Notes: generated from the letters alone by a model not told the origin. DNA of 64,000 nucleotides from Verrucomicrobiia bacterium (GCA_035489575.1 DATHJY010000003.1:53800-117799); one strand, 5' to 3'. Positions 955-57,244 are shown, numbered from the stretch's first letter. Program-made: numbers and translations.

Positions 955-1464
955 CTACGTGCGGTGACAGTACTCGCTCGGCTTCACGCCGTCGTCGATG
1001 GCGCTCAACAAGGTGAGAGGGAGGCGCATGCCACCAGGCTCATCCTGGAAGAACGTCTTCGTCACGCCGTCGTCGTTGACGCGGTACTGGACACGGCAGT
1101 CGCCCTTCCAGTCCTCGGCGGTGAAGCTGAACTCGCCACCATTCCACCCTGAGGCGTAGACCTTGTCGATCTCGTAGTCGAGATCGTGGCTCTGCTCGTA
1201 CTCCTGGAGGAGCACTTGGTGCTCGTCTTCCTGGATGTCGCTCAGGCGGCCATCGTGCGTGACGGTCGGGGTCAGCAGACCGATGAAGAACCACACGAAG
1301 ATGGCGATGACCCATGCGGCCCAACGAGGAATGGCCTCGTAGTTCCGACGGTAGTCCTGGTAATGGGCGTAGCTCACCAGCGCGAGGCAAGCGAGCGGGA
1401 TGCCGACCATCAGGGCGATCTGCCATCCCTCGAAGGGGATGGAGCGCGTCACTGCAAGCATCAC
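955..1464 (-). CDS. hypothetical membrane protein
   Basis: 169-aa ORF with two N-terminal hydrophobic helices; GC-rich patch. Confidence 0.5.
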   Translation of the reverse strand: MMLAVTRSIPFEGWQIALMVGIPLACLALVSYAHYQDYRRNYEAIPRWAAWVIAIFVWFFIGLLTPTVTHDGRLSDIQEDEHQVLLQEYEQSHDLDYEIDKVYASGWNGGEFSFTAEDWKGDCRVQYRVNDDGVTKTFFQDEPGGMRLPLTLLSAIDDGVKPSEYCHRT

Positions 1465-1611
1465 AGTCTCCTAACTGCTGCTAGGGGTGTCTCATCGATT
1501 GAAGAAACTATATAATTATAGCATTTTTTATAATATAAGTCAACATCCCTCACCCCCGTTGCTAGCTTTTGTTACAGGGTAGGCTACTCGTCAGTCCATA
1601 TCAGGGGTGGT

Positions 1612-2841
1612 ATGATATATCAAATGATTGAAATCTTGGATCTTGTGGCCCGAGCCGGCGGTGGCGGTTCCAGCGGCGGCGGCGGTGGTGGCGTGGGAAT
1701 TGTTGTGCTGCCATTGATACTTTTTAGCATAGTGGCCTCTCGGTGGGTGCGCAAGAAGAGGATCAAGAAAGCCCGGTCCAAGCAAAAGGCTGCTTTGGCC
1801 AAAGATCCTACCTGGTCAGAAGAGGTTATACAGCAAACCGCTGGCAACATCTTTTACGCCTTCCAGAAGGACTGGAGTGATTTTAATACCGACAGCATGA
1901 AGGCCTATCTGACGCCCCGATATCATTATCACACTTCCCTCATGCTGAACGCACTGTGGCACATGAATCGTCGCAACGAGATGCGAGACGTCAACCTAAA
2001 AAGCGTGACGCTGTTTGACGTGCATGACAATGCCGACGATGAACTAGATCGCTTCACGGTCGAGATCAGGGCTTCGGCAACCGACAATTTACTAGATATG
2101 GCCACTGGCAAGCTGCTGCATGGTACTTTTCCGGCGTTCGAAGAATTGTGGCACTTTGAGCGAGAGGGCAAGACCTGGATGCTGGACTCGGTTACCCAGA
2201 TAAATAGAGACAGCCTGATTGTTAAATACGACCCAGTGATCGACAAGAAATACGCCGATTTTGCCAAAGCCAATAAGTTCTTTTATAACGCCGACTTTGG
2301 CTGGCTGCTGATGCCGCTGCACGGTATTTTGTTTAGCGATGCCAGCTATGGCCGGTCGGACCTGAACCATCATGTCATCGGACTGTATCACAACCTGATA
2401 GTGCAGTTTTTTGAATATACTCCGCTTATCCAAAAGCAGGCACAGTTGAAAGATCACTTCAGGCACTTGTACCAACCGCGAAATCCCATGGCAAACTACA
2501 CGGTGGCGCATACCACTCTCCCCAAGAGTTACGGCAATATACTAGTCGCCCGGCACAAGTCATCTGCATTTTTCAAGTTCTCCCCACAAGGGATGCACAA
2601 GATTACGCTGGAATGGCCCCAGTTCAATAAGCTGTTCGATGTCTATGCCACTGATATGGATAGGATCGCTAGTCTTGAACTGGTGCATCCAGCATTTATG
2701 GAGCAGCTGGTTGGCCTGTCTTTCAAGGTCAGTATCGAGGTGATTGGCACTGACTTGTATCTGTATTCTACCGATAAGTCCGCAGACTATCAGCAGATGC
2801 TGGATATTCTCAAAAAAGCTTTCAAAGAAATGAAGCTGTAG
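1612..2841 (+). CDS. membrane protein with Gly-rich linker and Tim44-like/DUF-type C-terminal domains
   Basis: 409 aa: poly-Gly run, TM helix (IVVLPLILFSIVA), basic stretch, then soluble domains; no catalytic motif recognised. Confidence 0.5.
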   Translation: MIYQMIEILDLVARAGGGGSSGGGGGGVGIVVLPLILFSIVASRWVRKKRIKKARSKQKAALAKDPTWSEEVIQQTAGNIFYAFQKDWSDFNTDSMKAYLTPRYHYHTSLMLNALWHMNRRNEMRDVNLKSVTLFDVHDNADDELDRFTVEIRASATDNLLDMATGKLLHGTFPAFEELWHFEREGKTWMLDSVTQINRDSLIVKYDPVIDKKYADFAKANKFFYNADFGWLLMPLHGILFSDASYGRSDLNHHVIGLYHNLIVQFFEYTPLIQKQAQLKDHFRHLYQPRNPMANYTVAHTTLPKSYGNILVARHKSSAFFKFSPQGMHKITLEWPQFNKLFDVYATDMDRIASLELVHPAFMEQLVGLSFKVSIEVIGTDLYLYSTDKSADYQQMLDILKKAFKEMKL

Positions 2842-2845
2842 CCGG

Positions 2846-3994
2846 TTAGTAAAAGGTTTTGTCAAAGCCGGCACCCTTCAGGGTGTTTTTGTCGACTGGC
2901 TTGGCACTGAGGGTGATGGCATCCTGGCTGGCAATCAGCTCGGTGGGACGGGCAGGTGGTTGGCGGTCCTTGCTCATGACATGAATGTGGCTGATCACCA
3001 GGCTGTCTCCCACTGGATAATAGAGATACCGGACGTAATCATTGAGCCTGTTATAGAACTCTGCCTGGTAGTACGGGCCAATTTTGCGGCAGGCAACGTA
3101 TCCCATGGAATTGCCGGGGGACGGACCACAGTTTGGCCCCATGAGCTGGTAGTCTGAGAGGCGCCCGACATGCATAGTGACACTTTGTTCGTGGTTTTTT
3201 TGGTAGCTAAAGTTGATAAGGCTGGGGTGGTCGGCGTTGAGGCCGTCGATCTCCATGTGAGGTGGTGGGCCCAGCCGTTCGTTAATTGTCCAGCCCGGAG
3301 GTAGCGATTGTGGTATGGCCGGCGTGAAGTCTAGTTTGGAATAAGCCTGGGCGTTTTTTTGGCTCAGGGTAACTTTGTCTATTCTGGACTGGCTGTTTAT
3401 TTGCTCGACACGTCTGGCATTGGGTAACAAGTATAATCGATCGCTGCCGGGCGTAACTTCTGTGAAACTATCAAAATATTTCTGCCCACTGCTGCCACCT
3501 GCTGCTTTGATGTACAAAAATGTATTGCCAATGGTCACAAAACTTTCGTCTGTCGTAGATGGCATGCGCCGGCTTATGGTGTACACCGGTGCGCCCTGTA
3601 GGGTGCCTTTTTGAGTGCACGCGGAGGGGTAGTATGGTGTGATATCGGCAATGTTGGGACAAGCCGATGCCTTGAGTAGTGGGCTGGCCGGAAGGGCTAC
3701 GATGATTGTCCAAGGGCCAAGGGGCTCATCTCGGTGGAGTACGAGCGTCTGGGCAGAGCTGTACATGAGTCCTCGGCCATATTTGGTGAATACTTGTTGC
3801 TTCTGAACCGGTACGCCAAACATAAAGCTTCTGTCATCTGAAAAGTGGGTGGCATCGGGCAGCCAGACCCGACTGGGGAGCCTGATAGCAAAGGTTGCCG
3901 CAACCAGCAGCAGTCCTAGCGTTATCCAGCTGAGGGTACGCAGTGCCTGGGTGTAGCGGGGGTTTCTTTTGGCGAAGCGTCGGATGGCATGCAT
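2846..3994 (-). CDS. hypothetical N-terminally anchored/secreted protein
   Basis: 382-aa ORF with N-terminal TM/signal (WITLGLLLVAATFAI). Confidence 0.5.
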   Translation of the reverse strand: MHAIRRFAKRNPRYTQALRTLSWITLGLLLVAATFAIRLPSRVWLPDATHFSDDRSFMFGVPVQKQQVFTKYGRGLMYSSAQTLVLHRDEPLGPWTIIVALPASPLLKASACPNIADITPYYPSACTQKGTLQGAPVYTISRRMPSTTDESFVTIGNTFLYIKAAGGSSGQKYFDSFTEVTPGSDRLYLLPNARRVEQINSQSRIDKVTLSQKNAQAYSKLDFTPAIPQSLPPGWTINERLGPPPHMEIDGLNADHPSLINFSYQKNHEQSVTMHVGRLSDYQLMGPNCGPSPGNSMGYVACRKIGPYYQAEFYNRLNDYVRYLYYPVGDSLVISHIHVMSKDRQPPARPTELIASQDAITLSAKPVDKNTLKGAGFDKTFY

Positions 3995-4166
3995 ACGCTC
4001 ATAATATCATTGAACCCATCTCATATCTCCCCTCCAGCCTCAAGCCTTGCTGTTGGCGTGCTTCGCCAGTTTTGCTTCGCAACGTATCTACGGATACGTC
4101 TTGTCGCAAGAACTGACAAATCACGCTCACCAGCAAGGCTTTCACTTAACAGACGGGAGATATGAG

Positions 4167-4871: not shown

Positions 4872-6139
4872 ATGCAAGTGTTCGAGAATTTTGCCAGCGT
4901 ACATGCCTATTTGAATCAGCGGTTGCCTCAGGCATGGCCCAGCGGGCACGCTTATACACTAGATCGCATGCGTCAGCTTATGGACTATTTGGGCAATCCC
5001 CAGGATAGTTACAAGGCTATACATATAGCTGGTACCTCTGGAAAAACCTCGACAGCTTACTACGTAGCGTCGCTACTACGCCAGGCAGGATTCAAGGTGG
5101 GGCTGACGGTCCCCATGTAGATGAGATTAATGAGCGTGTACAAATAAACAACAAGCCCCTTAGCGAATCGCGATTTTGTAGCAGTTTCGGAAAATTTATA
5201 GAGAAGGTGGAGAAAAGTGACATCAAGCCCACCTATTTTGAGACACTGGTAGCATTTGCCTTCTGGCAGTTTAGCCAGTCAAAGGTAGACTATGCCGTGA
5301 TAGAGGTTGGTCTGGGCGGCTTGCTGGATGGCACTAACGTGATGCATCGGCAGGATAAGGTATGCGTTATTACCGACATAGACTACGATCACACCTCTAC
5401 CTTGGGCAAAACCCTGGAAGCTATTGCGGCTCAGAAGGCCGGCATTATCCAGCCGCACACCGCTGTCTTTTCATACGAGCAGAACGACGAGGTGATGGGG
5501 GTGCTGCGCGAGGCGTCCCGGCAGCAGCAAGCCGAGCTGCACGAAGTATGGCCACTCAAGGACACAGAACTACCCGAGAACCTGCCGCTGTTTCAGCGGC
5601 GCAATTGGTACTTGGCCTACTCTGTAGTTGAGTACTTAACGACGCGAGATAACTTCAAGGCGCTGGGTGAGGCTGGGCTGGAAAAGTCGACGCATGCTTA
5701 CATCCCTGCGCGAATGGAACAACAGGAACTAGCGGGTCATACGCTTATTATGGATGGCGCCCACAATCCGCAGAAGTTCCAGATGCTTATGAAGAGTGTT
5801 GCGCATGCTTACCCAGATGCTCCCCTGGCCTGTATGGTTAGCTTTGTGCGCACCAAGCAGGCCAAGGTGCGAGACAGCTTGCAGGCCTTGGTGCCGTATT
5901 GTTCGCACCTTATCATTACTAGCTTTGCCCAAGACAGCATGGGTAAGACGTCTATAGACCCACTAAAAATAGCAGAGCAGTGTGAAGAGCTCGGCTTTGA
6001 AAACTGGGAAATTATACATGACCCAATCCAGGCCTATAAAAAATTACTGAAACGTCCTGAACCTTTATTGCTTATAAGTGGTTCGTTCTTTTTGCTAAAC
6101 TACGTCAGACCCTACATAAAAAAGGAACAGCCAACATGA
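4872..6139 (+). CDS. folC: folylpolyglutamate synthase/dihydrofolate synthase FolC, interrupted by a frameshift in a C4 run (5111-5114)
   Basis: Mur-ligase P-loop HIAGTSGKTSTAYYVASLL in the 4872-5120 frame. The conserved continuation PHVDEINERVQINNKPLSE...DYDHTSTLGKTLEAIAAQKAGII is in a different frame from 5114 on. One extra C would fuse the two frames. Confidence 0.75.
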
Positions 6140-6609
6140 TCAGGTGTATTGCAGTAATGGATGAAAAACAAGGCATAGCTGATGATCATGGCATTCCCTG
6201 GCAAGGTAAGCTCCCGACTGATATCCGGTATTATCGCCGGAAGTCCAGGGGCGGCACGGTACTCATGGGTGAGGTCATGTATAACGAACTGACCCGGCCT
6301 ATGCCTGGCAGGCGGAATTTGGTGTTGGCGCTGGCGCCCACCTTGCGTCCTGGCTTTGAAAAAGTAAAAGACCTTGCGACATTGTTGCAAAACCCTCCTG
6401 AGAACTTCTGGGTACTCGGCGGTGCTAGCATTTTTGAACAGACTTTAGATGCGGCGGACGAGCTGTATCTGACCCAAATAGAGGGCGACTTTGGATGCAC
6501 TAAATTCTTCCCAGAATTTAAAGATACATTTGAACTGGCAGAAGAAAGCCAGCCCCAAATAGAGAGTGGTATTACCTTTCGCTTTCAGATCTGGAAAAGA
6601 AAGACCTAG
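6136..6609 (+). CDS. folA: dihydrofolate reductase
   Basis: MIRCIAVMDEKQGIADDHGIPWQGKLPTDIRYYRRKSRGGTVLMG... is a DHFR signature; ATGA overlap with the folC stop. Confidence 0.85.
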   Translation: MIRCIAVMDEKQGIADDHGIPWQGKLPTDIRYYRRKSRGGTVLMGEVMYNELTRPMPGRRNLVLALAPTLRPGFEKVKDLATLLQNPPENFWVLGGASIFEQTLDAADELYLTQIEGDFGCTKFFPEFKDTFELAEESQPQIESGITFRFQIWKRKT

Positions 6610-9404: not shown

Positions 9405-10156
9405 CTAGGCCTTGTGTACCAGGACGCTCACATCGTCCTGGGCATTGTGGGAAAAGGCCAAGTATCCCAGTGACTTCACGACGTTGGCAGCCGGGCTACC
9501 GTCGAATAAAGCAGCAATTTCCTCGGGCTGCACGCTGGACTTTTCGTCATGTTCCCACTCATCCAGCCCGTCAGTAAATAGCGCAATATAGTCGTCAGGT
9601 AATAATGGCACCTTTTTAAAGATCAGTGCTTCGTTTACGGCTTTTCTATTACCTAGGCCCGCATGAGAGAAAGCGCCAAGCCACGTTGCCTCCTTTGGCA
9701 ACTGGAATCGAATGCGGCCATCATTCACCACCAATAGGCTGCAGTCGCCATAGCTTGTGACTGAAAGCTGACTGTTGGCTACCGCGACTGCGATAAATGC
9801 AGCTTCGGGGGTGAGGTCTGTCGGGGTGTCTGCTTGTTCGCTTCCATAGCGTTCGAATAGAGCTGTCTGGAGGCGTGTTACCTTTGTCACGGCTTCGCTT
9901 CTGGCATGTGGGTTTTCTTCTGTGCCCAAAAATCAACAATGTGCTGTGCGGCCCCGTCTCCCCAGTGTCCGTCTGCGATACATGCGTTCAGGCTATTCTG
10001 CTCTGGCCACACCCCTAGACGATCTTCGTTTTCATGGCCAGTAGGGCCGCGCCGATTGAAAAATATGCTGTTTTTTCGTCTGGCGTGATTATATGTTTTT
10101 CCCAAGAACCAGCTTCTGTTCCCATAGCTGTAGTATACCTTCTGAGGCACGACCAT
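9405..10156 (-). CDS. PP2C-family Ser/Thr phosphatase, interrupted by a frameshift near 9905-9925
   Basis: N-part (9887-10156) has the ADGHWGDGAAQ metal-binding motif. C-part (9405-9929) has the GDCSLLVVNDGRI/...DDVSVLV PP2C motifs. The two frames are offset by 1 nt in an A/T-run region (gatttttgggcacagaagaaaaccc). Confidence 0.6.
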
Positions 10157-10220: not shown

Positions 10221-10297
10221 GGGCCAGTAGCTCAGCTGGTTAGAGCACCTGCCTCTTAAGCAGGGTGTCGAGGGTTCAAGTCCCTCCTGGCCCTCCA
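10221..10297 (+). tRNA. tRNA-Lys (anticodon CTT), CCA encoded
   Basis: cloverleaf: acceptor gggccag/ctggccc, D-arm gctc..gagc, anticodon stem cctgc/gcagg with loop ctCTTaa, T-arm gaggg-ttcaagt-ccctc, then tcca. Confidence 0.9.
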
Positions 10298-10301
10298 GAT
10301 A

Positions 10302-10331
10302 AAAAGACCTACCGAAGCGTAGGTCTTTTTA
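10302..10331 (+). terminator. rho-independent terminator after tRNA-Lys
   Basis: agacctac-cgaagc-gtaggtct hairpin followed by ttttt. Confidence 0.6.
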
Positions 10332-10467
10332 TCTGGTTGATTATCGAGAGACTTGAACCCGGGAGGGTGAGGACAGCCCGGTGGCTGTCCGAATTTTCCA
10401 TGCTTGGCCTCACACAAAAATGCTTGAAGTAGCGAGTCCCACTGAGGGCTCGGCGCTCCAAAACACT

Positions 10468-11559
10468 CTAAACTGGTCGACTCTCCGCAGGAACCTCCAG
10501 GCTTTCCGGCTTGCCGTTTCTGTTCAAGATCATGCCGGCTTGCTGCAGGAAAAATGCGCCAGGGAGACATCTGAGCTCGTTCATAGGCAGATCCGGATAC
10601 CAGGTACGCATCATTTCTAGCACGTGAGTAGTACCGGTTTCTAGGCGGATACCAAGCGCAGCAGACCAACCCAAAATAGTAGCGGTCTGGACACGCGCCC
10701 AAAAATTAATGAGCTCCAGGTCTACTTCGCTGCCCGTTTGTTCGTGATATGCTGTCGCAGCGCTCTTAACGGCTTCTCCCAAACCTAGCGCCGCCAGATG
10801 TCGGAGCTCTCGCTCTGGACTGCTCGGCTGGGTAGCCCCAAAGTCGATGACGCCGACAGGCACGTAGCACGGCTGATCGACGGAGCCGCTAGTGGTAAAA
10901 GTTAAATTGTTCGGACGCAGATCGCTATGACCAATAATCGGTCGAGGTTCCACGCCGTCAGGAAAATAGGCCAAGTGTTCTTGGGTCAGATCTTCCACGA
11001 TGCCAGCGAGCCTAGGGACGCCCATTTGCTGCAAAAAATCGGCGTTCATACTCAATCGGTAAAGCCTCTCTGTTCTGTCAGCAAATAGCAAAGGCTCGTC
11101 ACCGACGAGCTCGAAAAACTTGCCTGGGGTGATTGTTTGAGCCAACCACGCGACAAAGCTACCGATTTTGGTACCGAGCTCTTGCTGCGCCACTGGATCA
11201 AGCTGGTAGTAGCGGTTCAGCTGATCCGCGGTAACCACATCGCCCTCCACATAAGTCGATACCACAAAACCCGTACCGTCATCGTCCGTGTCGGTTTCGA
11301 TGAACTGTGGCACATGCAGAGGCGGCTCGCACGCTGCGCTGTCGAGTTCGTCGAGCATCATGGCTTCATGCCATGAGTGATGCCGCCCTCTGTCTTTATC
11401 GCGCAGCAACTTTACTACTACGCGCTCGCCGTCCCGCTGGCCAAAATGAACCGCCCCGTACGCCCCGCTAGCATCAGAGGGTTGGTCGAAAGACACCCCA
11501 AACCACGACTCCAGATACGCGATATGTGCTGCTTCGGAAGCCATGCCTGTAGTCATCAA
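10468..11559 (-). CDS. aminoglycoside/choline-kinase-like phosphotransferase (APH) family protein
   Basis: Brenner-type catalytic loop HSDLRPNNLTF and VIDFGAT (DFG-like) motif; kinase-like N-lobe VVVKLLRD. Confidence 0.6.
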   Translation of the reverse strand: MMTTGMASEAAHIAYLESWFGVSFDQPSDASGAYGAVHFGQRDGERVVVKLLRDKDRGRHHSWHEAMMLDELDSAACEPPLHVPQFIETDTDDDGTGFVVSTYVEGDVVTADQLNRYYQLDPVAQQELGTKIGSFVAWLAQTITPGKFFELVGDEPLLFADRTERLYRLSMNADFLQQMGVPRLAGIVEDLTQEHLAYFPDGVEPRPIIGHSDLRPNNLTFTTSGSVDQPCYVPVGVIDFGATQPSSPERELRHLAALGLGEAVKSAATAYHEQTGSEVDLELINFWARVQTATILGWSAALGIRLETGTTHVLEMMRTWYPDLPMNELRCLPGAFFLQQAGMILNRNGKPESLEVPAESRPV

Positions 11560-11655
11560 CCCAGAGCCATTTTCATTTCTCTATTCTAGCAACTACAACG
11601 GTGGCGACACGGTAATCATATTCGGCTTCATCGATACCCATGGTCAGCTGTACTA

Positions 11656-12192
11656 GTGTTTTTCGCGTCTAAGCTTCGCAACCTCTCGTACATAGAGGTA
11701 AACTTCGATAGAAGGTGTTCCACCTACGGGCAACTTGGCCCTCCATTCAAAAAGCTCACTCGTAAAAGTGGGCTTTTTGAATGTTATGATTTAGATATGC
11801 ATAAAGCACAAGTTGATACGCTAGACCTACGGCAAGCCATCGAAGCATCGTGGCAACTCGATTCGGCTTATGAACATATAGAAGAAAGGGGCAACCCATC
11901 CCTGGGGCAGTGCCATGTTACGGCACTTGTCGTACATCACTACTATCCAGAAACCAGGATTGTTGAAGGCGAAGTGCAAACCGGCAAAGGTTTAGAAAAA
12001 CATTTCTGGAATATGTTCCACATAGATGGTCACGACTTGCACCTCGATTGGACTTGGCAGCAATTCCCACACGGTTCAACGATTAAAAGTTGGAAAGTGC
12101 GTGCAAAAGACGACATAAATAATAGTCAAGATACTACTGATAGATTCAAACGACTATTGCGCAGAGTTAAGTATGAGCTAAGTAAACTTTAG
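11656..12192 (+). CDS. hypothetical protein
   Basis: 178-aa ORF (GTG start; internal ATG at 11797 possible); His/Trp-rich conserved-looking core; no known motif. Confidence 0.4.
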   Translation: MFFASKLRNLSYIEVNFDRRCSTYGQLGPPFKKLTRKSGLFECYDLDMHKAQVDTLDLRQAIEASWQLDSAYEHIEERGNPSLGQCHVTALVVHHYYPETRIVEGEVQTGKGLEKHFWNMFHIDGHDLHLDWTWQQFPHGSTIKSWKVRAKDDINNSQDTTDRFKRLLRRVKYELSKL

Positions 12193-12210
12193 TTTTTAGC
12201 AGCGCTCACT

Positions 12211-12252
12211 TTGACATTAAGTACTACCAGGTGTACTATATAAAGTACTATG
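12211..12252 (+). promoter_or_regulatory. sigma70-like promoter (TTGACA-17-TACTAT) with triple GTACTA operator repeats (12-bp spacing) for yefM-yoeB module 1
   Basis: TTGACA 12211-16, -10 TACTAT 12234-39; GTACTA at 12221, 12233, 12245 overlapping the -10 and ATG; resembles the E. coli yefM TGTACA operator. Confidence 0.5.
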
Positions 12253-12504
12253 AATGTTACATCTATCTCCAAGTTTCGTAAGGATACTAAGGGTTATTTT
12301 GATAAGGTCATTGATGACAAAGACGTTCTTCTTATAACGCGCAACGATGGCCAGACGGTTGTTGTAATGTCTTTAGATGAATACAACTCTAAGGCCGAGA
12401 CCGATTACCTAAACAGCAGCCCTGATAACCGAAAACATCTGGAGAAATCCATTGCCTCACTGCACGCGGGCAAGACTGAAAAGCACCACTTAGTAGAAGA
12501 ATAG
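12250..12504 (+). CDS. yefM: Phd/YefM-family antitoxin
   Basis: 84 aa; SISKFRKDTKGYFDKV...ETDYL YefM signature; ends 1 nt before yoeB. Confidence 0.8.
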   Translation: MNVTSISKFRKDTKGYFDKVIDDKDVLLITRNDGQTVVVMSLDEYNSKAETDYLNSSPDNRKHLEKSIASLHAGKTEKHHLVEE

Positions 12505-12505
12505 C

Positions 12506-13178: not shown

Positions 13179-13183
13179 TAAAA

Positions 13184-13209: not shown

Positions 13210-13222
13210 ATACACTTTTACT

Positions 13223-14686: not shown

Positions 14687-14706
14687 CGCTTCTCATGTCC
14701 CCCGGG

Positions 14707-48455: not shown

Positions 48456-48637
48456 TCCGTTTTTCGTCCTTTGGGCCTTGTCGGAGTTTTACTCCCAATG
48501 GGTCCGGGACTCGTCAGCACAAACGCACATTTGTGGAAACGGTATAACAATGGAGGGTGTGGCGGGGTGTGTTGCGGCGGCGCGCATAAAGTACCTGAGC
48601 GGTACACCACACCCATCTGGGCTTGTTGGTCGTGATC

Positions 48638-49186
48638 TCACTGGGGCAGCAGAGCCTTGAAGGCGCCTTCCTTCCGGTTTTGGACCTTGTGCTTGATGAG
48701 CTTTCGGACCAGCCAGTAGGTGACTAGGAGCAGGAGCCCCAGCTTGCTGCAGAGGGACCACAGTTGGAACGCTTCTTGCTGCAGGGGCAGGTGTGTCATG
48801 CCGACGGCAGTCCACGCTTTCTGCATGAGTAGGTCGGCGTTGCCGAGGACGATGGTCAGGAGCTGCTGCATCAGGATGACGTCCAGGAGCTTGATGAGCA
48901 AGAACACGAAGGGGGCCATCATGGTGGTAGCCATGGCCACGTCGACGGTGGTGCCTTCCACCTTGCTTGGGGTTCGATGAGCCTGCAGGTACTTGGTCTC
49001 GGCGGCGTCCAGGACGGACAGGTGGCCGAGCCAGAAGATCACCGCGCAGATGGCAGTAAACACGATCCAGCCAACCACGGCGGGCAGGCTGAGGAGTGCG
49101 AGTACCAAGGCAAGTCCTCCATTGTTAAGGGTGACACGAGTTGTCACGCTTATGATTATACCATATTTGATAAGTATTTTACACAA
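48638..49186 (-). CDS. hypothetical membrane protein (GC-rich)
   Basis: multiple TM helices. Confidence 0.4.
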   Translation of the reverse strand: MCKILIKYGIIISVTTRVTLNNGGLALVLALLSLPAVVGWIVFTAICAVIFWLGHLSVLDAAETKYLQAHRTPSKVEGTTVDVAMATTMMAPFVFLLIKLLDVILMQQLLTIVLGNADLLMQKAWTAVGMTHLPLQQEAFQLWSLCSKLGLLLLVTYWLVRKLIKHKVQNRKEGAFKALLPQ

Positions 49187-49363: not shown

Positions 49364-50650
49364 TTATACTTGGGAGATAGCCAGTCGTAGCATGTCTTCG
49401 GGCATGCGGCTGGGGTAGATGGTTTTGTAGTCGTAGTTGGGCGGCAGCTCGTAATGATACTTGAGCAAGTCTGGATAGACGGTTTGCGCCATGGTCATGG
49501 CGGCCCGCGATTCTTTGACTTCGCCCACGCACTCTAGTGGTTTTTCGCCGGCAATGCCCAGCAGCTGTTCGTAGGTAGGTTCTAGCTTGGGGTCGTGCAG
49601 CAGGTTTTTGCCACTCCACAATTTTTCTAGATCCGCGCGGGGGATGAACGGTGTGAGCATGAGGAAGATAAAGGCACACTTTGGACATTCACCACACCAC
49701 GACATGCGGTCACTGGTGTGTATGTAGGCGCGGTTACAGCTGCTAAAAACATCTTTGTATTTCTCGAAACTCAGGCGCGCAAAGAACTCGGCAATGCGGA
49801 GCTCACTAAAGGGACGCAGCAGAGAGTAGTAGCGAATGCTATCACCAAAAAAAAGAGTCAGCACTGCTTGAAAATCCTGTTCGAATTCCTCGGATTTTGA
49901 GTACTGATGGTTGATGGCTACACCTTGATAGTGCAGAGTTGGCTCGTTGGCAGATTGCTCATTGGCCATAACCACGTCTCTTTTACCAGTCAGGATGGCT
50001 ACGACAGTACCCACACAGGCAAAGATAGCGGATATGGGAATATGACCGTTCAGGGCATCTTTTTCTTTAAGCTCCATAATTTGCTTGTCCCACTGACGCT
50101 CTACCCATTTGTGGGGCAGCCCAATACGTTCGACTAATGGTGTAAGCTGCGGGCGATGATTGACACTCCAGGTGGCTAAGTCAGAATGCTTAGGACGTAG
50201 TAGTTCTATGGCTACCAGGGAGTCTTTCCCGCCGCCTACGCTCGCGAGTGGGCCGGTGCCGGTATGGTGTGCTTCCTTGATAACGTTCGTGGTTATTGGA
50301 AAGGTGACCGGTGTGCGGGGGTCTAGTTGGTTTTCATACCAGAATTCACCCAAACCACGTTGATAGGTCTTAGAGAAAAAGCTGGCGAGCGGCCTATCCA
50401 GCTGACCACGGCGCACAACAATTTCTGAAGGAATATACATTTTGTAGTAAGAGACGCCGGCCATAAAAAACAGCAGCTGAAAGGCGCGGTCTAGGGTTGC
50501 TTGGTTGTACTGCGCAAAATCAAAGTCGAACTTGTAGGTTTCGGTCAGCTTGAGGGCATCATCAAAAGCATATTGGAGCTTTAGTATTTTGGTGTTTTCG
50601 TCAAACTGGTAGTCTTCAAAGATGAATTGATTGTATTTGTTGGGTCTCAT
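49364..50650 (-). CDS. PP-loop (SGGxDS) ATP-pyrophosphatase superfamily protein with C-terminal CxxC
   Basis: LASVGGGKDSLVAIELL; CGECPKC; 4-nt overlap with murD stop. Confidence 0.45.
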   Translation of the reverse strand: MRPNKYNQFIFEDYQFDENTKILKLQYAFDDALKLTETYKFDFDFAQYNQATLDRAFQLLFFMAGVSYYKMYIPSEIVVRRGQLDRPLASFFSKTYQRGLGEFWYENQLDPRTPVTFPITTNVIKEAHHTGTGPLASVGGGKDSLVAIELLRPKHSDLATWSVNHRPQLTPLVERIGLPHKWVERQWDKQIMELKEKDALNGHIPISAIFACVGTVVAILTGKRDVVMANEQSANEPTLHYQGVAINHQYSKSEEFEQDFQAVLTLFFGDSIRYYSLLRPFSELRIAEFFARLSFEKYKDVFSSCNRAYIHTSDRMSWCGECPKCAFIFLMLTPFIPRADLEKLWSGKNLLHDPKLEPTYEQLLGIAGEKPLECVGEVKESRAAMTMAQTVYPDLLKYHYELPPNYDYKTIYPSRMPEDMLRLAISQV

Positions 50651-51975
50651 AGGGCGTTCACTGCTTCTTTGTACTGGATGCCTCGGTCCTCGAAGTTCTT
50701 GAACATATCAAAACTGGCAAAACCTGGTGACAGCACTACCTTGTCGCCGGGATGAGCAGCGGACTTGGCGTGATCGACAACATTTTTCATGGCGGCGTCT
50801 TGCAGTACGTCGTAATTGGTAAAACCATGCACGGACAAGGCTTTTTCTATATGAGGGGCTGATTGGCCGATGATAATAACCCGCCGTAGGTCCTCTTGGT
50901 GTTTGACGATACCACGAGCTAGTTCGCCCAGATCCAGCCCGCGGTCAAAGCCGCCAATAAGCATGACTTTGCTGCCAACAATTGCGTCCATGGCCGCTAC
51001 AGTAGCTGGGGGTGCGGATGCAAAAGAGTCGTTGTAATAAGTTACGCCGTCTACCTCACGGACGCGCTCCAGGCGGTGGGGTAGGCCAGCCAGACCGGCA
51101 ATGGCCTTACGAATAGCTGGCACGTCTTGGGTGATATTCCATACAGCGGTGACGGCAGCGCAGACATTTTGCCAGTTGTGTTTGCCCAAGAGTTTGATGT
51201 CTGATATGTCACAAATTTTGTGGTGGTCTATCATGACGTACTCTTCGCCTTCGGCGTTGTCGGTCACGTAGGCACCCGGGTCGGCCATGAAGGGCATGAT
51301 ACTGCCGGCGGTAGATTCTGCTATAGCTTGGGAATAGTGGTTGTTGGCGTAATAAATGGCAATGTCTTGTTCTGCCTGGTGGACAAATAGCTGGCGTTTA
51401 GCCTCTACATATTCGTCTATGTCGGCATGCCAGTTGAGGTGTTCGGGCTCGATTAGCAGGCAGACGGCAATATGGGGTGACGATTTGAGATCTATCAGCT
51501 GGAAGTTGGCTAGCTCTAGTACCACCCAATCATCTGGCTTGATACCGTCCTTTAGCATGTCCAATGGTGGTATGCCAATATTACCGCCCAGATGTACTCG
51601 GTGGCCGGCTGCTTCTAGCATCCGGGCAATAAGGATACAGGTAGTGCCTTTACCCTTTGTGCCGGTGACGCCAATGATATTGCGGGTGGGACAGACCTCG
51701 AGGAATTCGTTGGTATTGGTCCAGATTTTTTCTAGGATATCCGGTGCATCGGGATTTGCCTCTTGGATTTGCCGAGGATGAATAACGGGGGTGCGAATAA
51801 TTAGATCGTATTGGTCCAACTTTTCCAGGTATTCTGGCCCCAACTGTTTTTTTGCACCAGGCGGGATGTGCTTTTTGGTGTCAATATCGCAAATAGTAAT
51901 ATCGTTTTCGGGTTTGCCCCAATAGTCGTAGGCCGACTTGCCCTGTCCTTCAAAGCCCAAGATAGCTATCTTCAT
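50647..51975 (-). CDS. murD: UDP-N-acetylmuramoylalanine--D-glutamate ligase
   Basis: GVTGTKGKGTT P-loop, GGNIGIPPLD, C-terminal LSPGFASFDMFKNFEDRG is the typical MurD end. Confidence 0.8.
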   Translation of the reverse strand: MKIAILGFEGQGKSAYDYWGKPENDITICDIDTKKHIPPGAKKQLGPEYLEKLDQYDLIIRTPVIHPRQIQEANPDAPDILEKIWTNTNEFLEVCPTRNIIGVTGTKGKGTTCILIARMLEAAGHRVHLGGNIGIPPLDMLKDGIKPDDWVVLELANFQLIDLKSSPHIAVCLLIEPEHLNWHADIDEYVEAKRQLFVHQAEQDIAIYYANNHYSQAIAESTAGSIMPFMADPGAYVTDNAEGEEYVMIDHHKICDISDIKLLGKHNWQNVCAAVTAVWNITQDVPAIRKAIAGLAGLPHRLERVREVDGVTYYNDSFASAPPATVAAMDAIVGSKVMLIGGFDRGLDLGELARGIVKHQEDLRRVIIIGQSAPHIEKALSVHGFTNYDVLQDAAMKNVVDHAKSAAHPGDKVVLSPGFASFDMFKNFEDRGIQYKEAVNAL

Positions 51976-53069: not shown

Positions 53070-54092
53070 GTGCGAAAGTACATCGTCGGTCTACTGACCG
53101 TTGTGTGCATGACCATCGGCATGCTGTGCATGCCGACCGCCCCCGCTGACGCTCAGGCGTCACAGACCTTTCGGATCGCTCGGACCGAGATCGGCATCCG
53201 CTTCCGGACCAACCCGAACGACTGGAACTCCGCTGCTGGCCCCGCTGGCTACGACGGTGACTGGGTGACGCTGCACTGCGTGCGCGAAGGCACCGCTGTC
53301 GGCCCCTACAACAACCGCATGTGGTACCAGGCCACGACTGCCACAGGGTCGGGCTGGCTCCCGGATCGGTACACCACCACGCCGATCAACGCCAACGAGT
53401 GGCTGCCCAACCTGTCCAAATGTGACCAGCCGGCTCCGGCTGCTGCGCCAACCCCGGCAAGCCAGTCGGTGTTCTTCTCGCCCAACGAGACCCCCGGTGG
53501 GCAGGACGGGCTGAACCCCGGAACGACCAACCTCAAGCTGTCGCAGTGGGCTGGCGGTGAAGGGTGTTCGGCTGACAACGTCATGTCCTCGGTCCCGGCC
53601 AACACGACCACCATCGCTGGCTGGAGTCGCGGGCGTATGGGTGTGGTCTACTTCCTGACAAAGGCTACGCCCCGGCAGATGCAGCAGCTGGACACCATCG
53701 TCCTCTTCGATCCAGGCAGCGCCCGCAATTTCGAGGATCGCTGGGTCATCAGCTGGGATCCACACCAGGAGGCTTGCGATGACAATTACGACATCAATGG
53801 CTTGCTGGCCAACTGGCTGAAGTCTGAGCGCGAGAAGCGGTTGATCGTGGTAACTGGTCACGACAGTGAGATGTACGAGTTCGCCGGCCTTTGGGACCAC
53901 TATTTCGCTGGCATCTGGGCGTTGGACGATGACATCAGTGCGGCGCGTGCGCGCGTTTGCGACTACACCAACATGGACCACTACGTCCTGATGCGGCAGT
54001 TCGCTGGCATGGTGAAGAGCCCTCCAGACAGCTGCCCCCGTGGTGTCGGCAACCAGGACGCCGTCAAGGGCGCCCAGGGCTGGCACCCGTAG
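53070..54092 (+). CDS. secreted hypothetical protein (GC-rich)
   Basis: signal peptide LLTVVCMTIGMLCMPTAPADA; GC-rich. Confidence 0.5.
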   Translation: MRKYIVGLLTVVCMTIGMLCMPTAPADAQASQTFRIARTEIGIRFRTNPNDWNSAAGPAGYDGDWVTLHCVREGTAVGPYNNRMWYQATTATGSGWLPDRYTTTPINANEWLPNLSKCDQPAPAAAPTPASQSVFFSPNETPGGQDGLNPGTTNLKLSQWAGGEGCSADNVMSSVPANTTTIAGWSRGRMGVVYFLTKATPRQMQQLDTIVLFDPGSARNFEDRWVISWDPHQEACDDNYDINGLLANWLKSEREKRLIVVTGHDSEMYEFAGLWDHYFAGIWALDDDISAARARVCDYTNMDHYVLMRQFAGMVKSPPDSCPRGVGNQDAVKGAQGWHP

Positions 54093-54185
54093 TTCAATAG
54101 CAACCTTGCCGGAGGGCAGCGTGTTCGAGCGTTTTTCGCTCCTCGCACTGCTCCTCCGGCCCTACCATTTATAAAATATTCCACA

Positions 54186-54283
54186 CATGAAGAAAGACCC
54201 GTCAAGCGCAGAACCCTGGTAAGGGTATCGGTGCTGAAGAATCTTTCTCCAGTACGTGCATTTGACGAGTCTTGTTGCTCGTT
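54186..54283. repeat. conserved ~100-nt structured element, copy 1 (3' of membrane-protein paralog)
   Basis: catgaagaaagacccgtcaagcgcag...gtgctgaagaa.tctttctcc...ttgacgag.cttgttgctcgt; interleaved complementary blocks agaaagac/gtctttct and cgtcaagc/gcttgacg. Confidence 0.5.
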
Positions 54284-54293
54284 CTTTGTTGGG

Positions 54294-54782
54294 CTAGCCC
54301 TGGGGCTGGGGTGGGAAGGGGTCGAGGCGCCAGATGCACCACTCCAGGAAGTGCGCGTAGGCGTAGCCTCCAGCCAGCATGATCGGCAGGGCCCAGGGAA
54401 GGACCAAGAACATGCCCAAGCTGGCAGGCACGACCACCCCGAGGCCCAGCACGAGTGCGCCGAACGTGGCGACCTGGTGCTTTGTGGGTAGGAGCAGGCA
54501 GCCAAGGGCCAGCGAGAAGACCACCACGGAGACGACTCCACCTAGCAGCAGGAAGCTGACAGAGAGGCGTTCACCAGGCAGCTTGGTTCCAAGGCACACG
54601 GTACCCAGGAAGAGGGGCCACTGCAGGGCAGCCAGGACTCTGGTCAGACGCAGCCGGATGGGACCCCAGCCGGTTGTCTGGCTCTTCAGCCATTGCTCTC
54701 GCTGAGCATCTACCTGAGCGGCATCAACTGCCTTGATGGCTGCGTCCGTAGTCACGGATGCGGAAGTGTCTTGAGGGGTCAA
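54294..54782 (-). CDS. small polytopic membrane protein, paralog 1 of 3
   Basis: TM helices; C-terminal ...LDPFPPQPQG shared with paralog 3 (...LDPYPPALQ). Confidence 0.5.
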   Translation of the reverse strand: MTPQDTSASVTTDAAIKAVDAAQVDAQREQWLKSQTTGWGPIRLRLTRVLAALQWPLFLGTVCLGTKLPGERLSVSFLLLGGVVSVVVFSLALGCLLLPTKHQVATFGALVLGLGVVVPASLGMFLVLPWALPIMLAGGYAYAHFLEWCIWRLDPFPPQPQG

Positions 54783-54836
54783 AAGAGAGACTCCAGGGGT
54801 TAGATACGAGCAAGGACATACAACCTGTTACGACAG

Positions 54837-54871
54837 ATCGTAGGACATATATTATAATATTTTTCCACATA
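54837..54871 (-). promoter_or_regulatory. conserved promoter motif (TTATAATATATnTnnTACGAT) upstream of paralog 1
   Basis: shared with 55593-55620 and 57245-57272, each ~60-85 nt upstream of a paralog start. Confidence 0.4.
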
Positions 54872-54881
54872 AATTACAAGG

Positions 54882-54977
54882 CATGAAGAAAGGCTCGTCA
54901 AACGTGGGATACCCTGTAGGGGCGCCAGGTGTGAAGAGACTTTCTTCACTCACGTCTGACAAGCCTTGATGCTCGTC
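54882..54977. repeat. conserved structured element, copy 2
   Basis: catgaagaaaggctcgtcaaacg...gtgaagagactttcttc...tgacaagccttgatgctcgtc. Confidence 0.45.
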
Positions 54978-54995
54978 GTACTGGGCGGATGTTCG

Positions 54996-55541
54996 TTAGA
55001 CCGGCCGGGTGGGTCGGCGGTTGAGGAGCGCCATGGGGATGTGGGCGTGCAGCACCATGAAGATGATGCCGAGGTAGCCCATGATGATGCCGGTGAGCAC
55101 CGGATAGTCACTGCCCGCCGGACCGTCGAAGGCTGCGTTGATCAGCAGGACGGGAACGACAGACGAAACCACGGTGGCCGCGCCAACGTAGAGCAGTCCA
55201 CGGTGGTGGGCGGGACGCCACAGGACGGCGCACGACAGGCCGATGGCCACAATCCTGACGATCAGGAAGGCGGCGGTGGGCAGCGTGTGCGTCGAGGCCT
55301 GCGACGAATCGTCGGGCAAGTTGGGCAGAGCCCATGCGGCCGTAGCGAACCACTGTACGAAGCCGGCCGGAACCAGCCACAGCATCCGGGCGTCGTATGA
55401 CTCCCATTGGGCCATGCGCTGCCGGTGCTCCTCGTCCCGATGGGCTTGCTCGCGGCGAGCGGCAGCCTCGGCGAGGGAGGGTTGAGTGGTCTTGCCAGCG
55501 CCGGTGATGAGCAGCGATAGTACGGTGTCAAGAAAGGGCAT
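54996..55541 (-). CDS. small polytopic membrane protein, paralog 2 of 3
   Basis: 181 aa; similar architecture. Confidence 0.45.
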   Translation of the reverse strand: MPFLDTVLSLLITGAGKTTQPSLAEAAARREQAHRDEEHRQRMAQWESYDARMLWLVPAGFVQWFATAAWALPNLPDDSSQASTHTLPTAAFLIVRIVAIGLSCAVLWRPAHHRGLLYVGAATVVSSVVPVLLINAAFDGPAGSDYPVLTGIIMGYLGIIFMVLHAHIPMALLNRRPTRPV

Positions 55542-55592
55542 GGTATCTCCAGGGGGTGGGTGAGTACGAACGAGAACGTACGATCTGCCGAA

Positions 55593-55620
55593 GACTAATC
55601 GTAATAGATATATTATAACA
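55593..55620 (-). promoter_or_regulatory. conserved promoter motif upstream of paralog 2
   Basis: aatcgtaatagatatattataaca. Confidence 0.4.
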
Positions 55621-55636
55621 CAAAAAATTACTTAAT

Positions 55637-56557
55637 TCAATCTCTTGTCAGGAGGGAGTCCAGCAAGGCGCCACCTCCCCCCAGCAAAATATGCGGGTCG
55701 GTTGGTCCTTGTTTGTGGACAAAGCGTGTTTCTGGCACGTGCCCCGCCAAGGGAGTGTCCGAGGCCATGAGCTCATCGACGGCAGTTCTGTAAGCATCTT
55801 CGTCCAGCTTGAGCCCGTGTCCGGTCGTATCCCAGCTGATGATAAGTACCTGGGCAGTGGAAGCTCGACCAAGTCTGCCTGCCATCAGCGCCAACTGGTG
55901 GGGATCAATCTCTGACGGCGTATCTGGTGTCTGCTCTGGCGCTTGTTCTACTGCGGGCTTATCGGGCAGTTGTGGCCAGTCCGGGTGAGCAATGTCGTGG
56001 AAGGGCGCCGGAAGGTCGATAGCCCTCCAGGATTTGTTGATCCTGTGTACTGCACCACCGGTCAAATTCCTCCTGCCTAAATCGATTCCAGCAACGGCAT
56101 CGGCACTGGGATTGTAGGCTGCCGCCGCATGGGCTACGAGGGTGTTGTAGTGGACCACTTCATACAGGGGTCTATACTGGAATAAACGGTCAAACTCCTC
56201 TCCTTGGGCGCGGATTCCGCTGACGATATTGATCGGATCTTCTATGTCATGCACATGTGGCGTGTCCCGCAGCCAATTTGGCGCCGCCGCGCCGTCATAG
56301 ACGCCTCTACGACGTATATTCCCGTGCAGCGCAACTACGGTGGATCCGGTGCCTTTTTGGCGCCCTTCCTGCAAGGTGTGAGCTAAGAACCTGTAAAAGT
56401 TCTCTAGATCGTATGGCACATCTGTAAATTCGTAGGCTTCGGCAGAGGCCTCGCCCCGGAGTCTGGTGGTAGTTTCGCCTACCAAAGCACCATTATCGCT
56501 GTCGATTGCCACTACCAGATCACGTCCGACCACCACGGGGGCTCGTTCGTCTGCCAT
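55637..56557 (-). CDS. hypothetical protein (possibly metallophosphoesterase-like)
   Basis: 306 aa, GC-rich; weak LHGN motif only. Confidence 0.35.
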   Translation of the reverse strand: MADERAPVVVGRDLVVAIDSDNGALVGETTTRLRGEASAEAYEFTDVPYDLENFYRFLAHTLQEGRQKGTGSTVVALHGNIRRRGVYDGAAAPNWLRDTPHVHDIEDPINIVSGIRAQGEEFDRLFQYRPLYEVVHYNTLVAHAAAAYNPSADAVAGIDLGRRNLTGGAVHRINKSWRAIDLPAPFHDIAHPDWPQLPDKPAVEQAPEQTPDTPSEIDPHQLALMAGRLGRASTAQVLIISWDTTGHGLKLDEDAYRTAVDELMASDTPLAGHVPETRFVHKQGPTDPHILLGGGGALLDSLLTRD

Positions 56558-56623
56558 AGCTTGACCCTCTTTTAGTACTTAATAGTATAAATCGCCTGAG
56601 AATCAAATTCAAAGCTTGGGCCA

Positions 56624-56723
56624 CATGAAGAAAGACCCGTCAAGCGCAGAAAACCCAGTAAAGGGCATCGGTGCTGAAGAAGTCTTTCTCCAGTGTCTGT
56701 GCTTGACGAGCCTTGTTGCTCGT
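56624..56723. repeat. conserved structured element, copy 3
   Basis: ~85% identical to copy 1 with non-triplet indels. Confidence 0.5.
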
Positions 56724-56737
56724 CTCTGTTGGTGTGG

Positions 56738-57187
56738 CTATTGCAGTGCGGGCGGGTAAGGGTCCAGGCAGGACAGCGCCAGCCTGAGGCTGATGGCGTA
56801 GGCGGCGCAGCCCAGGACCGTCAGTGGCAGTGGGCTGTCGAGCTGGTAGCCCGCATAGAGCGGCCCGAAGGTGCCGAATACGAGAATGGCTGCCAGGAAC
56901 AGGGTCCGCTGCTTCGTGCTGCCTGAACTGGGCAGGAGACACATGGTGGCGATCATTACTCCACTGCTGGTGATCGCGCCAATCAGCCAGGGGCCGATGG
57001 GGAGCACTGGATGCTCGTGGAGCTTGGTGGCCATGAGGTTGAAGTAGATATCCCACTGCAGGACGGCCAGGATGGAAAGCACGATCACAGCGAGTCGCTG
57101 GTCATGTTGACGCTTCTCCCATGCCTCTCGCTTGGCCATCAGCTTGGTGACGTCGGCATCAGGGGTGGTCGGTGATTGGAGGTTCAT
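56738..57187 (-). CDS. small polytopic membrane protein, paralog 3 of 3
   Basis: ATG MNLQSPTT with SD cgggag (track ORF extends to GTG 57229). Confidence 0.5.
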   Translation of the reverse strand: MNLQSPTTPDADVTKLMAKREAWEKRQHDQRLAVIVLSILAVLQWDIYFNLMATKLHEHPVLPIGPWLIGAITSSGVMIATMCLLPSSGSTKQRTLFLAAILVFGTFGPLYAGYQLDSPLPLTVLGCAAYAISLRLALSCLDPYPPALQ

Positions 57188-57244
57188 TGAAAACTCCCGG
57201 TAGACGAGCAAGAACGTACAATTTGTCACATCACGCGTGAAGTA

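Follow-up and report, generated by a model that had tools for sequence, protein, structure and literature searches.

The window analysed here is a 64,000-nucleotide stretch listed under Verrucomicrobiia bacterium (GCA_035489575.1 DATHJY010000003.1:53800-117799) with an overall GC content of 51.4%, in which GC-rich genes are scattered among open reading frames (ORFs) of mid-range GC. Together the GC-rich ORFs cover ~10 kb, or 16% of the window, and are laid out as five single genes (955-1464, 27215-27637, 42242-43003, 44119-44916 and 48638-49186), one 3.6-kb radical S-adenosylmethionine (rSAM) cassette and one 4.2-kb islet (53070-57229). Of the explanations considered, horizontal acquisition from a pool of GC-rich genes accounts best for these patches, a reading in which our confidence is evenly balanced. 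The genes and elements of the patches are listed below, with lengths in amino acids (aa); GC3 denotes the GC fraction at third codon positions, and GC12 that at first and second positions.

955-1464, minus strand: orphan of 169 aa with predicted membrane segments and a C-terminal domain; GC 0.62, GC3 0.86.
16180-16899, minus strand: ORF resembling P-loop kinases, oriented divergently to the B12-rSAM gene; GC3 0.74.
16870-18552, plus strand: B12-binding rSAM enzyme (B12-rSAM; Pfam PF02310 and PF04055); GC3 0.70.
18441-19751, plus strand: rSAM/SPASM enzyme, the second rSAM of the cassette (Pfam PF04055 and PF13186); GC3 0.79.
19840-20202, plus strand: small pyrophosphatase-like gene (PPase; Pfam PF00719); GC3 0.54, at background.
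27215-27637, minus strand: orphan of 140 aa, coding strand uncertain; GC3 0.87.
42242-43003, minus strand: orphan of 253 aa (227 aa in the public gene call, 42242-42925); GC3 0.83.
44119-44916, plus strand: ORFan of 265 aa with a promoter-like site at 44006-44033 and a long downstream hairpin; GC3 0.76.
48638-49186, minus strand: orphan membrane protein (169 aa in the public gene call, 48638-49147); GC3 0.78.
53070-54092, plus strand: secreted protein that has a signal peptide and combines an SH3-like with a compact alpha/beta-hydrolase domain; GC3 0.81.
54184-54282, minus strand: conserved 3' flank (~100 nt) of two paralogous membrane-protein genes, with a second copy at 56622-56723.
54294-54782, minus strand: small membrane protein, promoter at 54879-54851; GC3 0.76.
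54832-54857, minus strand: AT-rich upstream motif GACnnATCGTA...ATATAnTATAA (repeat family D6), also at 55593-55618 and 57244-57269.
54996-55541, minus strand: small membrane protein of the same architecture, promoter at 55640-55612 (TTGAAT-17-TGnTATAAT); GC3 0.82.
55637-56557, minus strand: 306-aa protein unrelated to its islet neighbours; GC12 0.56, GC3 0.58.
56738-57229, minus strand: small membrane protein, promoter at 57291-57263; GC3 0.78.

Among 71 ORFs chosen by greedy selection, GC3 has a median of 0.558 and a robust standard deviation of 0.077. Twelve of them reach a GC3 of 0.70-0.87, and none falls between 0.65 and 0.70. Each outlier deviates from the median with a binomial z of 5-10 and a robust z of 1.9-4.1. 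These twelve, with a GC3 of at least 0.70, are the ORFs that a preliminary description of the sequence had listed as GC-rich; its last interval, 53070-57230, holds as GC-rich and GC3-biased except for the ORF 55637-56557 with its GC3 of 0.58. The long antisense ORFs that it reported over such genes are also present, at 53160-54086, 17557-18255 and 18498-19205 on the minus strand and at 42152-42640 on the plus strand. It had further proposed to check whether the GC differences stay within normal intragenomic variation, and with twelve outliers and a gap in the distribution the patches lie far outside it.

The borders of the patches follow the genes closely. At a resolution of 120 nt, the plateau of elevated GC (0.58-0.68) is bounded by the ORF and its downstream hairpin, and the flanking spacers drop to 33-43% GC. 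A sigma-70-like promoter is readable in the AT-rich upstream spacer of nine GC-rich genes, for example a TTGACT...TATAAT-like promoter in the spacer of 38-43% GC upstream of 955-1464, and a consensus promoter scan recovered promoters at five genes (44119, 54294, 54996, 55637 and 56738). Seven are followed at their 3' ends by a long GC-rich hairpin without a T-run (16180, 19751, 27215, 42242, 44916, 54092 and 54294). For the patch at 27215-27748 the public gene call uses the plus-strand ORF 27374-27748, whereas the GC3 periodicity, a TTGACG...CATAAT promoter-like site and the downstream hairpin favour the minus-strand ORF 27215-27637.

The codon usage of the GC-rich set was compared with that of the background set and of the genes for rpoA and the ribosomal proteins L17, L13 and S9 on the related 50% GC contig L093, a relative's genome, which served as a proxy for high expression. 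Compared to the background, both G-ending and C-ending codons are raised in every codon family of the GC-rich set, with third-position C and G fractions of 0.48 and 0.31, respectively, and codon fractions of 0.95 for AAG, 0.90 for TTC, 0.87 for ATC and 0.88 for TAC. The four L093 genes favour C-ending two-fold codons, and their shared preference for TTC, TAC, AAC and ATC would fit a pattern due to normal variation within the genome or to highly expressed genes with strongly optimised codons. However, CCG (0.00), ACG (0.02), CGG (0.02), GCG (0.08) and CTC (0.09) are avoided by these genes, whereas the GC-rich set uses them at fractions of 0.34, 0.27, 0.26, 0.21 and 0.38, respectively. Translational selection was therefore rejected, and the bias is a general shift towards G and C, as imposed by a GC-rich genome, rather than translational optimisation. 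Given in addition the z values, the gap in the distribution and a GC3 of only 0.58 in the core gene for RNase J, ordinary variation or codon optimisation is a very improbable account of the patches. The shift also extends to the proteins: GC12 is ~0.05 higher in the GC-rich set, and lysine makes up 2.7% of residues vs 5.4% in the background, and therefore selection on synonymous sites alone cannot be the cause. Altogether, the composition and codon usage of the set are atypical of the recipient and similar to those of high-GC Actinobacteria.

The recipient itself was placed through RNase J, which is 80% identical to its homologue in an uncultured Candidatus Saccharibacteria metagenome-assembled genome (MAG), 69-70% identical to those of two further Saccharibacteria/Patescibacteria MAGs, and ~40% identical to Firmicutes sequences. 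By sequence, the window belongs to an epibiont-type member of Saccharibacteria (TM7), and the small-genome, epibiont-like repertoire proposed earlier is borne out by this placement and by the gene content. Synteny around RNase J is not kept across the three nearest MAGs (9-22 kb compared). Saccharibacteria live attached to Actinobacteria. The core genes flanking the patches are all of mid-range GC, as the preliminary description had stated:

5207-6139: FolC-like gene.
6136-6609: dihydrofolate reductase (FolA).
25657-26592: pilin-like ORF.
35371-37317: RNase J (GC3 0.58).
43194-44000: FolD.
50647-51975: MurD-type ligase.

An assembly or binning artefact, in which reads of a high-GC organism were stitched into the contig, would agree with the breaks of the European Nucleotide Archive (ENA) assembly ERZ27268085 within two GC-rich regions, at window positions ~19207 and 53246. 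However, this assembly matches the window (tblastn 100% across 31-48 kb), and the patches at 27215, 42242, 44119 and 48638 are internal to its window-matching contigs, with tblastn identities of 100% for 42242 and 44119 and corresponding gene calls for 27215 and 48638. Moreover, the patches have their own promoters in native-like spacer DNA, and the same mosaic cassette recurs in three other samples (JGI 3300010383, ERZ23579008 and SRR11131034), so that the chance of such an artefact is close to nil. The window proteins are also encoded on a ~132.8-kb contig of the Joint Genome Institute (JGI). The contig ends of ERZ27268085 lie at ~19207, ~31055 and 53246, and the two within GC-rich genes could reflect strain variation or a drop in coverage at the patches.

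The rSAM cassette (16180-20202) is the only patch with recognisable families. The search of 5.8 billion proteins gave best non-self matches of 65-53% identity for B12-rSAM, the named ones being Candidatus Paceibacterota, and Streptomyces sequences only at 47%. The SPASM rSAM is 58-65% identical to its partners in two related loci (L087 and L088). In a neighbour-joining tree, the window B12-rSAM groups with three sequences (P0002, P0004 and P0021) deep within a radiation whose proteins have an amino-acid composition of the low-GC type, whereas the Streptomyces sequences sit on a distant branch. The preliminary description had proposed repeated acquisition from an actinobacterial host and held that best hits in the lineage of the core genes would speak against it. 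For the cassette the best hits are of that kind, and by this standard the rSAM patch is therefore not actinobacterial.

The conserved cassette encodes a kinase of the P-loop or Tmk-like type, two rSAM enzymes (B12-binding and SPASM) and a ~120-aa pyrophosphatase-like protein. It occurs in many Patescibacteria and on plasmids of Streptomyces, Enterococcus and Phaeobacter; besides the window, the loci are L084, L085, L086, L087, L088, L112 and L114, some with an amidohydrolase or HSP70-like gene. The kinase-like ORF of the window is not orthologous to the Tmk-like gene of the related cassettes (19-21% aa identity). The public gene call for B12-rSAM, of 520 aa, starts near 16990, later than the longest ORF, and the SPASM rSAM probably starts near 18600. 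Within the plasmid collection, both rSAM genes sit together on one plasmid of Streptomyces clavuligerus (47%) and one of Enterococcus (41%), and the SPASM rSAM gene also on plasmids of Phaeobacter (49%). A small inorganic diphosphatase gene lies nearby on the Enterococcus and Phaeobacter plasmids, as it does in the window and in contigs of the Candidate Phyla Radiation (CPR). The cassette is therefore mobile across phyla. Its PADLOC matches are weak (PDC-M51A, 1.9e-10; PDC-M51B, at the kinase-like ORF, E 0.009; pVip, 5e-9), and its role is likely to be nucleotide- or small-molecule-modifying. Similar to the prokaryotic viperins and the PADLOC candidate PDC-M51, an rSAM enzyme adjoins a P-loop nucleotide-kinase-like gene; unlike in these systems, the scores are far under family level, and there are two rSAM enzymes (B12-binding and SPASM) together with a mini-pyrophosphatase and sometimes an amidohydrolase.

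The GC3 mosaic within the cassette recurs in CPR loci, as follows.

Window: kinase-like 0.74, B12-rSAM 0.70, second rSAM 0.79, PPase 0.54.
L087 (JGI 3300010383): Tmk-like 0.81, B12-rSAM 0.73, second rSAM 0.86, PPase 0.49; amidohydrolase 0.40, flanks 0.40-0.50.
L112 (ERZ23579008): Tmk-like 0.84, B12-rSAM 0.74, second rSAM 0.90, PPase 0.405; flanks 0.44-0.61.
L088: kinase/Tmk-like 0.64, B12-rSAM 0.61, second rSAM 0.67, PPase 0.60.
L114 (Paceibacterota MAG): kinase/Tmk-like 0.53, B12-rSAM 0.49, second rSAM 0.51, PPase 0.385.

The PPase gene has a lower GC3 than both rSAM genes in all five loci; L088 and L114 show the same ranking with small differences. On L087 and L112, the PPase gene stands between the Tmk-like and B12-rSAM genes (9557-9919 and 1960-2337, respectively). 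At sites with an identical amino acid, the window shares the codon of L087/L112 at 0.42-0.48 of sites for B12-rSAM vs 0.41-0.42 by chance, and at 0.65-0.67 for the second rSAM vs 0.59 expected; the synonymous sites are thus close to saturation. By comparison, the rSAM genes of L087 and L112 retain synonymous similarity to each other (z ~8), whereas the embedded PPase genes retain none. High GC3 (0.70-0.90 in the window, L087 and L112) is hence shared by orthologues of two independent lineages past synonymous saturation. Neutral amelioration after one transfer of the whole block would not lead to such a mosaic. Its recurrence in only two independent lineages points to genes replaced one by one on several occasions or to a force acting on particular genes.

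A gene-specific force would mean that the GC3 state is maintained in situ, by recombination-linked GC-biased conversion or by selection on these accessory genes. Such maintenance would account for the near-chance codon identity, for the position of the cassette within a patescibacterial clade, for the synonymous similarity that L087 and L112 share in the rSAM genes and not in the intervening PPase, and for the high values of the kinase and rSAM genes (0.70-0.79 in the window, 0.73-0.86 in L087 and 0.74-0.90 in L112) beside PPase values that are lower in five of five CPR loci. However, the comparison comprises only two independent lineages (the window, and L087 with L112), tract-based conversion should neither halt at gene borders nor skip a central 360-bp gene, the codon usage is not translationally optimal and the amino-acid composition is shifted too. 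GC3 in the hydrolase family described below also varies among CPR contigs, from 0.33 to 0.81, and we know of no mechanism that yields a GC3 shift of such size. Saccharibacteria are naturally competent, and in genes that are often exchanged, GC-biased gene conversion would increase GC at every codon position; its reported effects are a few percent, in contrast to a GC3 difference here of +0.2 to +0.5 that ends sharply at gene borders and passes over one gene. Maintenance in situ is unlikely, though it deserves serious attention. The broader proposition, that a subset of patescibacterial accessory genes (here exemplified by the kinase, B12-rSAM and SPASM-rSAM genes and not the PPase gene) holds a stable high-GC3 state immune to amelioration, is more doubtful still. 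If true, it would rule against one-off import and imply a gene-targeted force, either selection on the nucleotide composition of these genes or biased conversion tied to recurrent exchange with GC-rich partners.

A link between the patches and high-GC genomes comes from the secreted protein 53070-54092. Its hydrolase family comprises 342 cluster representatives at E <= 0.001 in an exhaustive HMMER search (best 47% identity) and has no Pfam model. The alignment revealed the signal peptide, the SH3-like domain and a C-terminal domain in which Ser186 in a GWSxGR motif, Asp214 in LFDPG and His304 are invariant; five cysteines are invariant as well. The AlphaFold2 model has a mean predicted local distance difference test (pLDDT) score of 86, and its comparison with the PDB gave weak alpha/beta-hydrolase and SH3 fold matches only (E >= 0.01), which ruled out assignment to a specific enzyme family. 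From sequence and model, the protein is predicted to be a secreted serine hydrolase that carries a domain of the wall-binding type. The loci that bear on its history are as follows.

L090: mid-GC, CPR-type contig (GC 0.47); hydrolase gene GC3 0.33.
L092: mid-GC, CPR-type contig (GC 0.495); hydrolase gene GC3 0.74, flanks 0.35-0.60.
L093: mid-GC contig, gene beside rpoA, L17, L13 and S9; hydrolase gene GC3 0.55.
L094: high-GC contig; hydrolase gene GC 0.55, flanks 0.67.
L103: high-GC contig; hydrolase gene GC 0.56, flanks 0.65.
L110: high-GC contig; hydrolase gene GC 0.48, flanks 0.66.
L091: high-GC contig (GC 0.648); hydrolase gene in a lower-GC patch adjoining a resolvase.
L115: contig of 71% GC, an MDMPI_N/C (mycothiol-type) gene nearby; hydrolase gene GC3 0.86, neighbours 0.95-0.98.

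The family is thus found on at least eight high-GC contigs (62-67% GC) and on L115, which its GC content and MDMPI neighbour mark as putatively actinobacteria-like. The majority of the family in the tree comes from high-GC contexts; the window sequence clusters first with L093 and then with L092, both of CPR context, together with a few sequences that have no assigned context. Its nearest relatives are CPR-context genes with 39-45% identity, and the best actinobacterial ones reach ~34-42%. Members of the family are lower in GC than the GC-rich genomes around them, yet rich in GC in some genomes of mid-range GC, as exchange between both would produce. A mirror image of the window is seen on contigs of 64-67% GC, where the hydrolase gene lies in lower-GC patches (L091 5825-11418, L100 7974-17000 and L094 917-2178). 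With the family shared by high-GC, actinobacteria-like genomes and Saccharibacteria, the protein is a plausible tool at the host interface. The link to high-GC genomes drawn in the preliminary description is hence sound in that the family resides mostly on contigs of 62-71% GC, one of them actinobacteria-like, and fails in that no direct actinobacterial donor was found.

The remaining GC-rich genes are orphans or patchily distributed. Except for the rSAM pair, none of the GC-rich genes has a curated Pfam, NCBIfam, PHROG or PADLOC family match; 48638-49186 has only a sub-threshold Pfam match to Arif-1 (E 0.009, 16 bits vs a cutoff of 27). Neither the 50,697 phage records nor the 72,556 plasmids searched by tblastn contain a match to ten orphans, queried as two concatenated sequences, viral-contig scans were negative for 42242-43003, the SPASM rSAM and the hydrolase family, and tblastn of all window proteins found no further orphan homologues at the relatives' loci. 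The search for a high-identity donor or mobile element thus gave no phage, plasmid, PHROG or viral-contig match. Among 5.8 billion proteins, 44119-44916 matches only itself, which would not be expected of a gene recently imported from a phylum sampled so heavily; for this gene, a fast-evolving, lineage-restricted origin fits better than recent import.

These results bear on recent, repeated and direct transfer from the actinobacterial host of the epibiont. Such transfer would account for the codon usage resembling that of high-GC Actinobacteria, for the hydrolase family on the actinobacteria-like 71% GC contig and for the rSAM pair on Streptomyces plasmids and chromosomes, and host-to-epibiont transfer is documented for Saccharibacteria clade G6, which has a region ~95% identical to Streptococcus salivarius (PMC8386444). 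However, the best actinobacterial identities are 44-52% for the rSAM genes and ~34-42% for the hydrolase, compared to 53-65% for the patescibacterial matches to the cassette. The ten orphans have no phage or plasmid tblastn match and no PHROG match, 44119-44916 is an ORFan, and AT-rich flanks lie directly against the ORFs. None of the three informative cases nests in Actinobacteria: the cassette is patescibacterial, 44119-44916 has no homologue, and the hydrolase is nearest to CPR-context genes at 39-45% identity. The recurrence of the cassette mosaic despite near-saturated synonymous sites does not fit a recent block transfer from the host either. Direct host transfer is therefore improbable as the general source, and the repeated acquisition from an actinobacterial host proposed earlier is not sustained. 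The more general proposal of a high-GC donor stands in its compositional part, namely the outlier composition, the codon usage of a GC-rich genome and the low lysine content, and is unsupported only in naming an actinobacterial donor.

We favour acquisition from a GC-rich gene pool, in which twelve or more real accessory genes would have been acquired horizontally at different times from a source of ~60-70% GC whose genes would circulate within Patescibacteria and, in one family at least, also between them and actinobacteria-like high-GC bacteria. Each gene would form its own transcription unit, with an AT-rich sigma-70-type promoter in a spacer of 33-43% GC followed by the GC-rich coding sequence. 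From these data we infer a foreign origin and mixed ages for the patches. Several genes, among them 55637-56557, 157-822 and 59499-60284, are GC-rich at first and second codon positions with GC3 at background, and such genes may represent older, ameliorated acquisitions, protein function being the alternative. Several points weigh against acquisition from such a pool. No donor was found for the GC-rich genes, the rSAM cassette is nested among patescibacterial sequences, and a lack of homologues, as in the ORFan 44119-44916, would be surprising had the gene recently come from a phylum with good sampling. No integrase, transposase, att site or direct repeat flanks any GC-rich patch. The DNA between genes around the patches is AT-rich, so that the imported unit would need to be almost exactly an ORF and its hairpin. 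Neutral amelioration should also have erased the cassette mosaic, which persists despite near-saturated synonymous sites.

The low-GC patches of the window, at 11.6-16 kb, 26602-27120 and 58268-59203, which the preliminary description does not mention, include two islets with clear boundaries.

10221-10297, plus strand: tRNA-Lys(CUU), whose 3' end is repeated at 13144-13172 and 16034-16062.
10298-16062: two tandem islets between the copies of the tRNA-Lys 3' end, with one YefM/YoeB pair each.

Each copy is preceded by a shared ~55-nt sequence. The islets are low in GC from 11.6 kb on; before that point, an APH-type kinase gene (10468-11559) has the GC content of the background. Neither islet is accompanied by an integrase, and no Pfam family of integrases, recombinases or other mobility proteins was found in the scanned window ORFs. 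The region 10298-16062 is an integration hot spot, and the rSAM patch begins 118 bp beyond its last tRNA-Lys 3' repeat. The features of a genomic island, a tRNA-adjacent position and bounding direct repeats, hold for the tRNA-Lys islets and for none of the GC-rich patches. From the repeat-bounded low-GC islets and the GC-rich patches it follows that this genome integrates foreign DNA of more than one composition.

Compared to known cases, the window shares with clade G6 (PMC8386444) the phylum, the lifestyle and the notion that imported genes shift composition; unlike in clade G6, there is no high-identity host-type match, and the closest labelled relatives of the annotated genes are other Patescibacteria. 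As host-to-Saccharibacteria transfer is already in the literature (PMC8386444), the finding in its general form is of a known kind. Similar to imports in the Lawrence-Ochman amelioration framework, the patches combine outlier GC3 and codon usage with accessory or orphan content and a neighbouring tRNA hot spot, and the GC12-rich genes with background GC3 resemble older imports. They differ from such imports in that the units are single genes of 0.4-1.3 kb and one 3.6-kb cassette, bounded by ORF and hairpin, and in that one cassette keeps its signature past synonymous saturation. Unlike classic islets, the GC-rich patches have no integrase, att site or transposase, and unlike usual acquired genes, which are AT-richer, they are GC-richer than the host genome. 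A search for uptake signals found no over-represented k-mer that could mark transformable DNA. Three features go beyond known cases: patches that are GC-rich, consist of single genes and end with the ORF; a hydrolase family whose composition is mirrored in high-GC contigs; and an rSAM cassette whose mosaic persists. Composition alone overstates the argument for host-derived genes, as the only phylogenetically placeable patch is patescibacterial. If general, the persistent mosaic would offer a tractable case of non-neutral base-composition control in very small genomes and would call for caution in amelioration-based dating or detection of transfers in Patescibacteria. Isolated GC-rich genes with a GC3 of 0.62-0.81 were also seen on other patescibacterial contigs of 45-50% GC (L090 7991-9551, which encodes PspA/IM30, L002 7168-7671 and L087 20771-21373), and the mosaic of GC-rich genes may be general across the group.

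In the islet, the membrane proteins 54294-54782 and 56738-57229 are paralogues with 32% aa identity, and the intervening 55637-56557 has no Pfam, NCBIfam, PHROG or PADLOC family match. A partial copy of the conserved 3' flank of the two paralogues lies at 54880-54909 (repeat families D4, D7 and D12), and 30 nt of the flank are 100% identical. The AT-rich upstream motif overlaps the -10 elements of all three membrane-protein genes. This sharing of motif and flank could reflect a regulatory or RNA element in common. The islet products (the secreted SH3 and hydrolase protein and the small membrane proteins) likely have cell-surface and host-interface roles.

A further shared element, TTGTGCTGACGAGTC in minus-strand reading, occurs at 42119-42142 and 48499-48522, ~100-140 nt downstream of two unrelated GC-rich orphans. 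Its reading as a hammerhead-like ribozyme is unsupported, as the Rfam scan gave only the tRNA.

Elsewhere, the window encodes Mur ligases, a MurL-type gene, PspC/PadR, histidine kinases, single-domain response regulators and YefM/YoeB toxin-antitoxin pairs. A FolC/Mur-ligase-like gene looks split into an 82-aa ORF (4872-5120, the start of Mur_ligase_M) and a 310-aa ORF (5207-6139, the remainder), which may represent a frameshift or a pseudogene. Of the three single-domain response regulators (39634-40008, 57298-57675 and 57741-58124), the last two are tandem paralogues with 62% aa identity and a conserved 46-nt DNA stretch in common. In addition, 31270-33018 encodes a 582-aa protein with cohesin and CarboxypepD_reg-like domains, a GC content of 0.565 and a strong positive GC skew, which is probably a surface protein.

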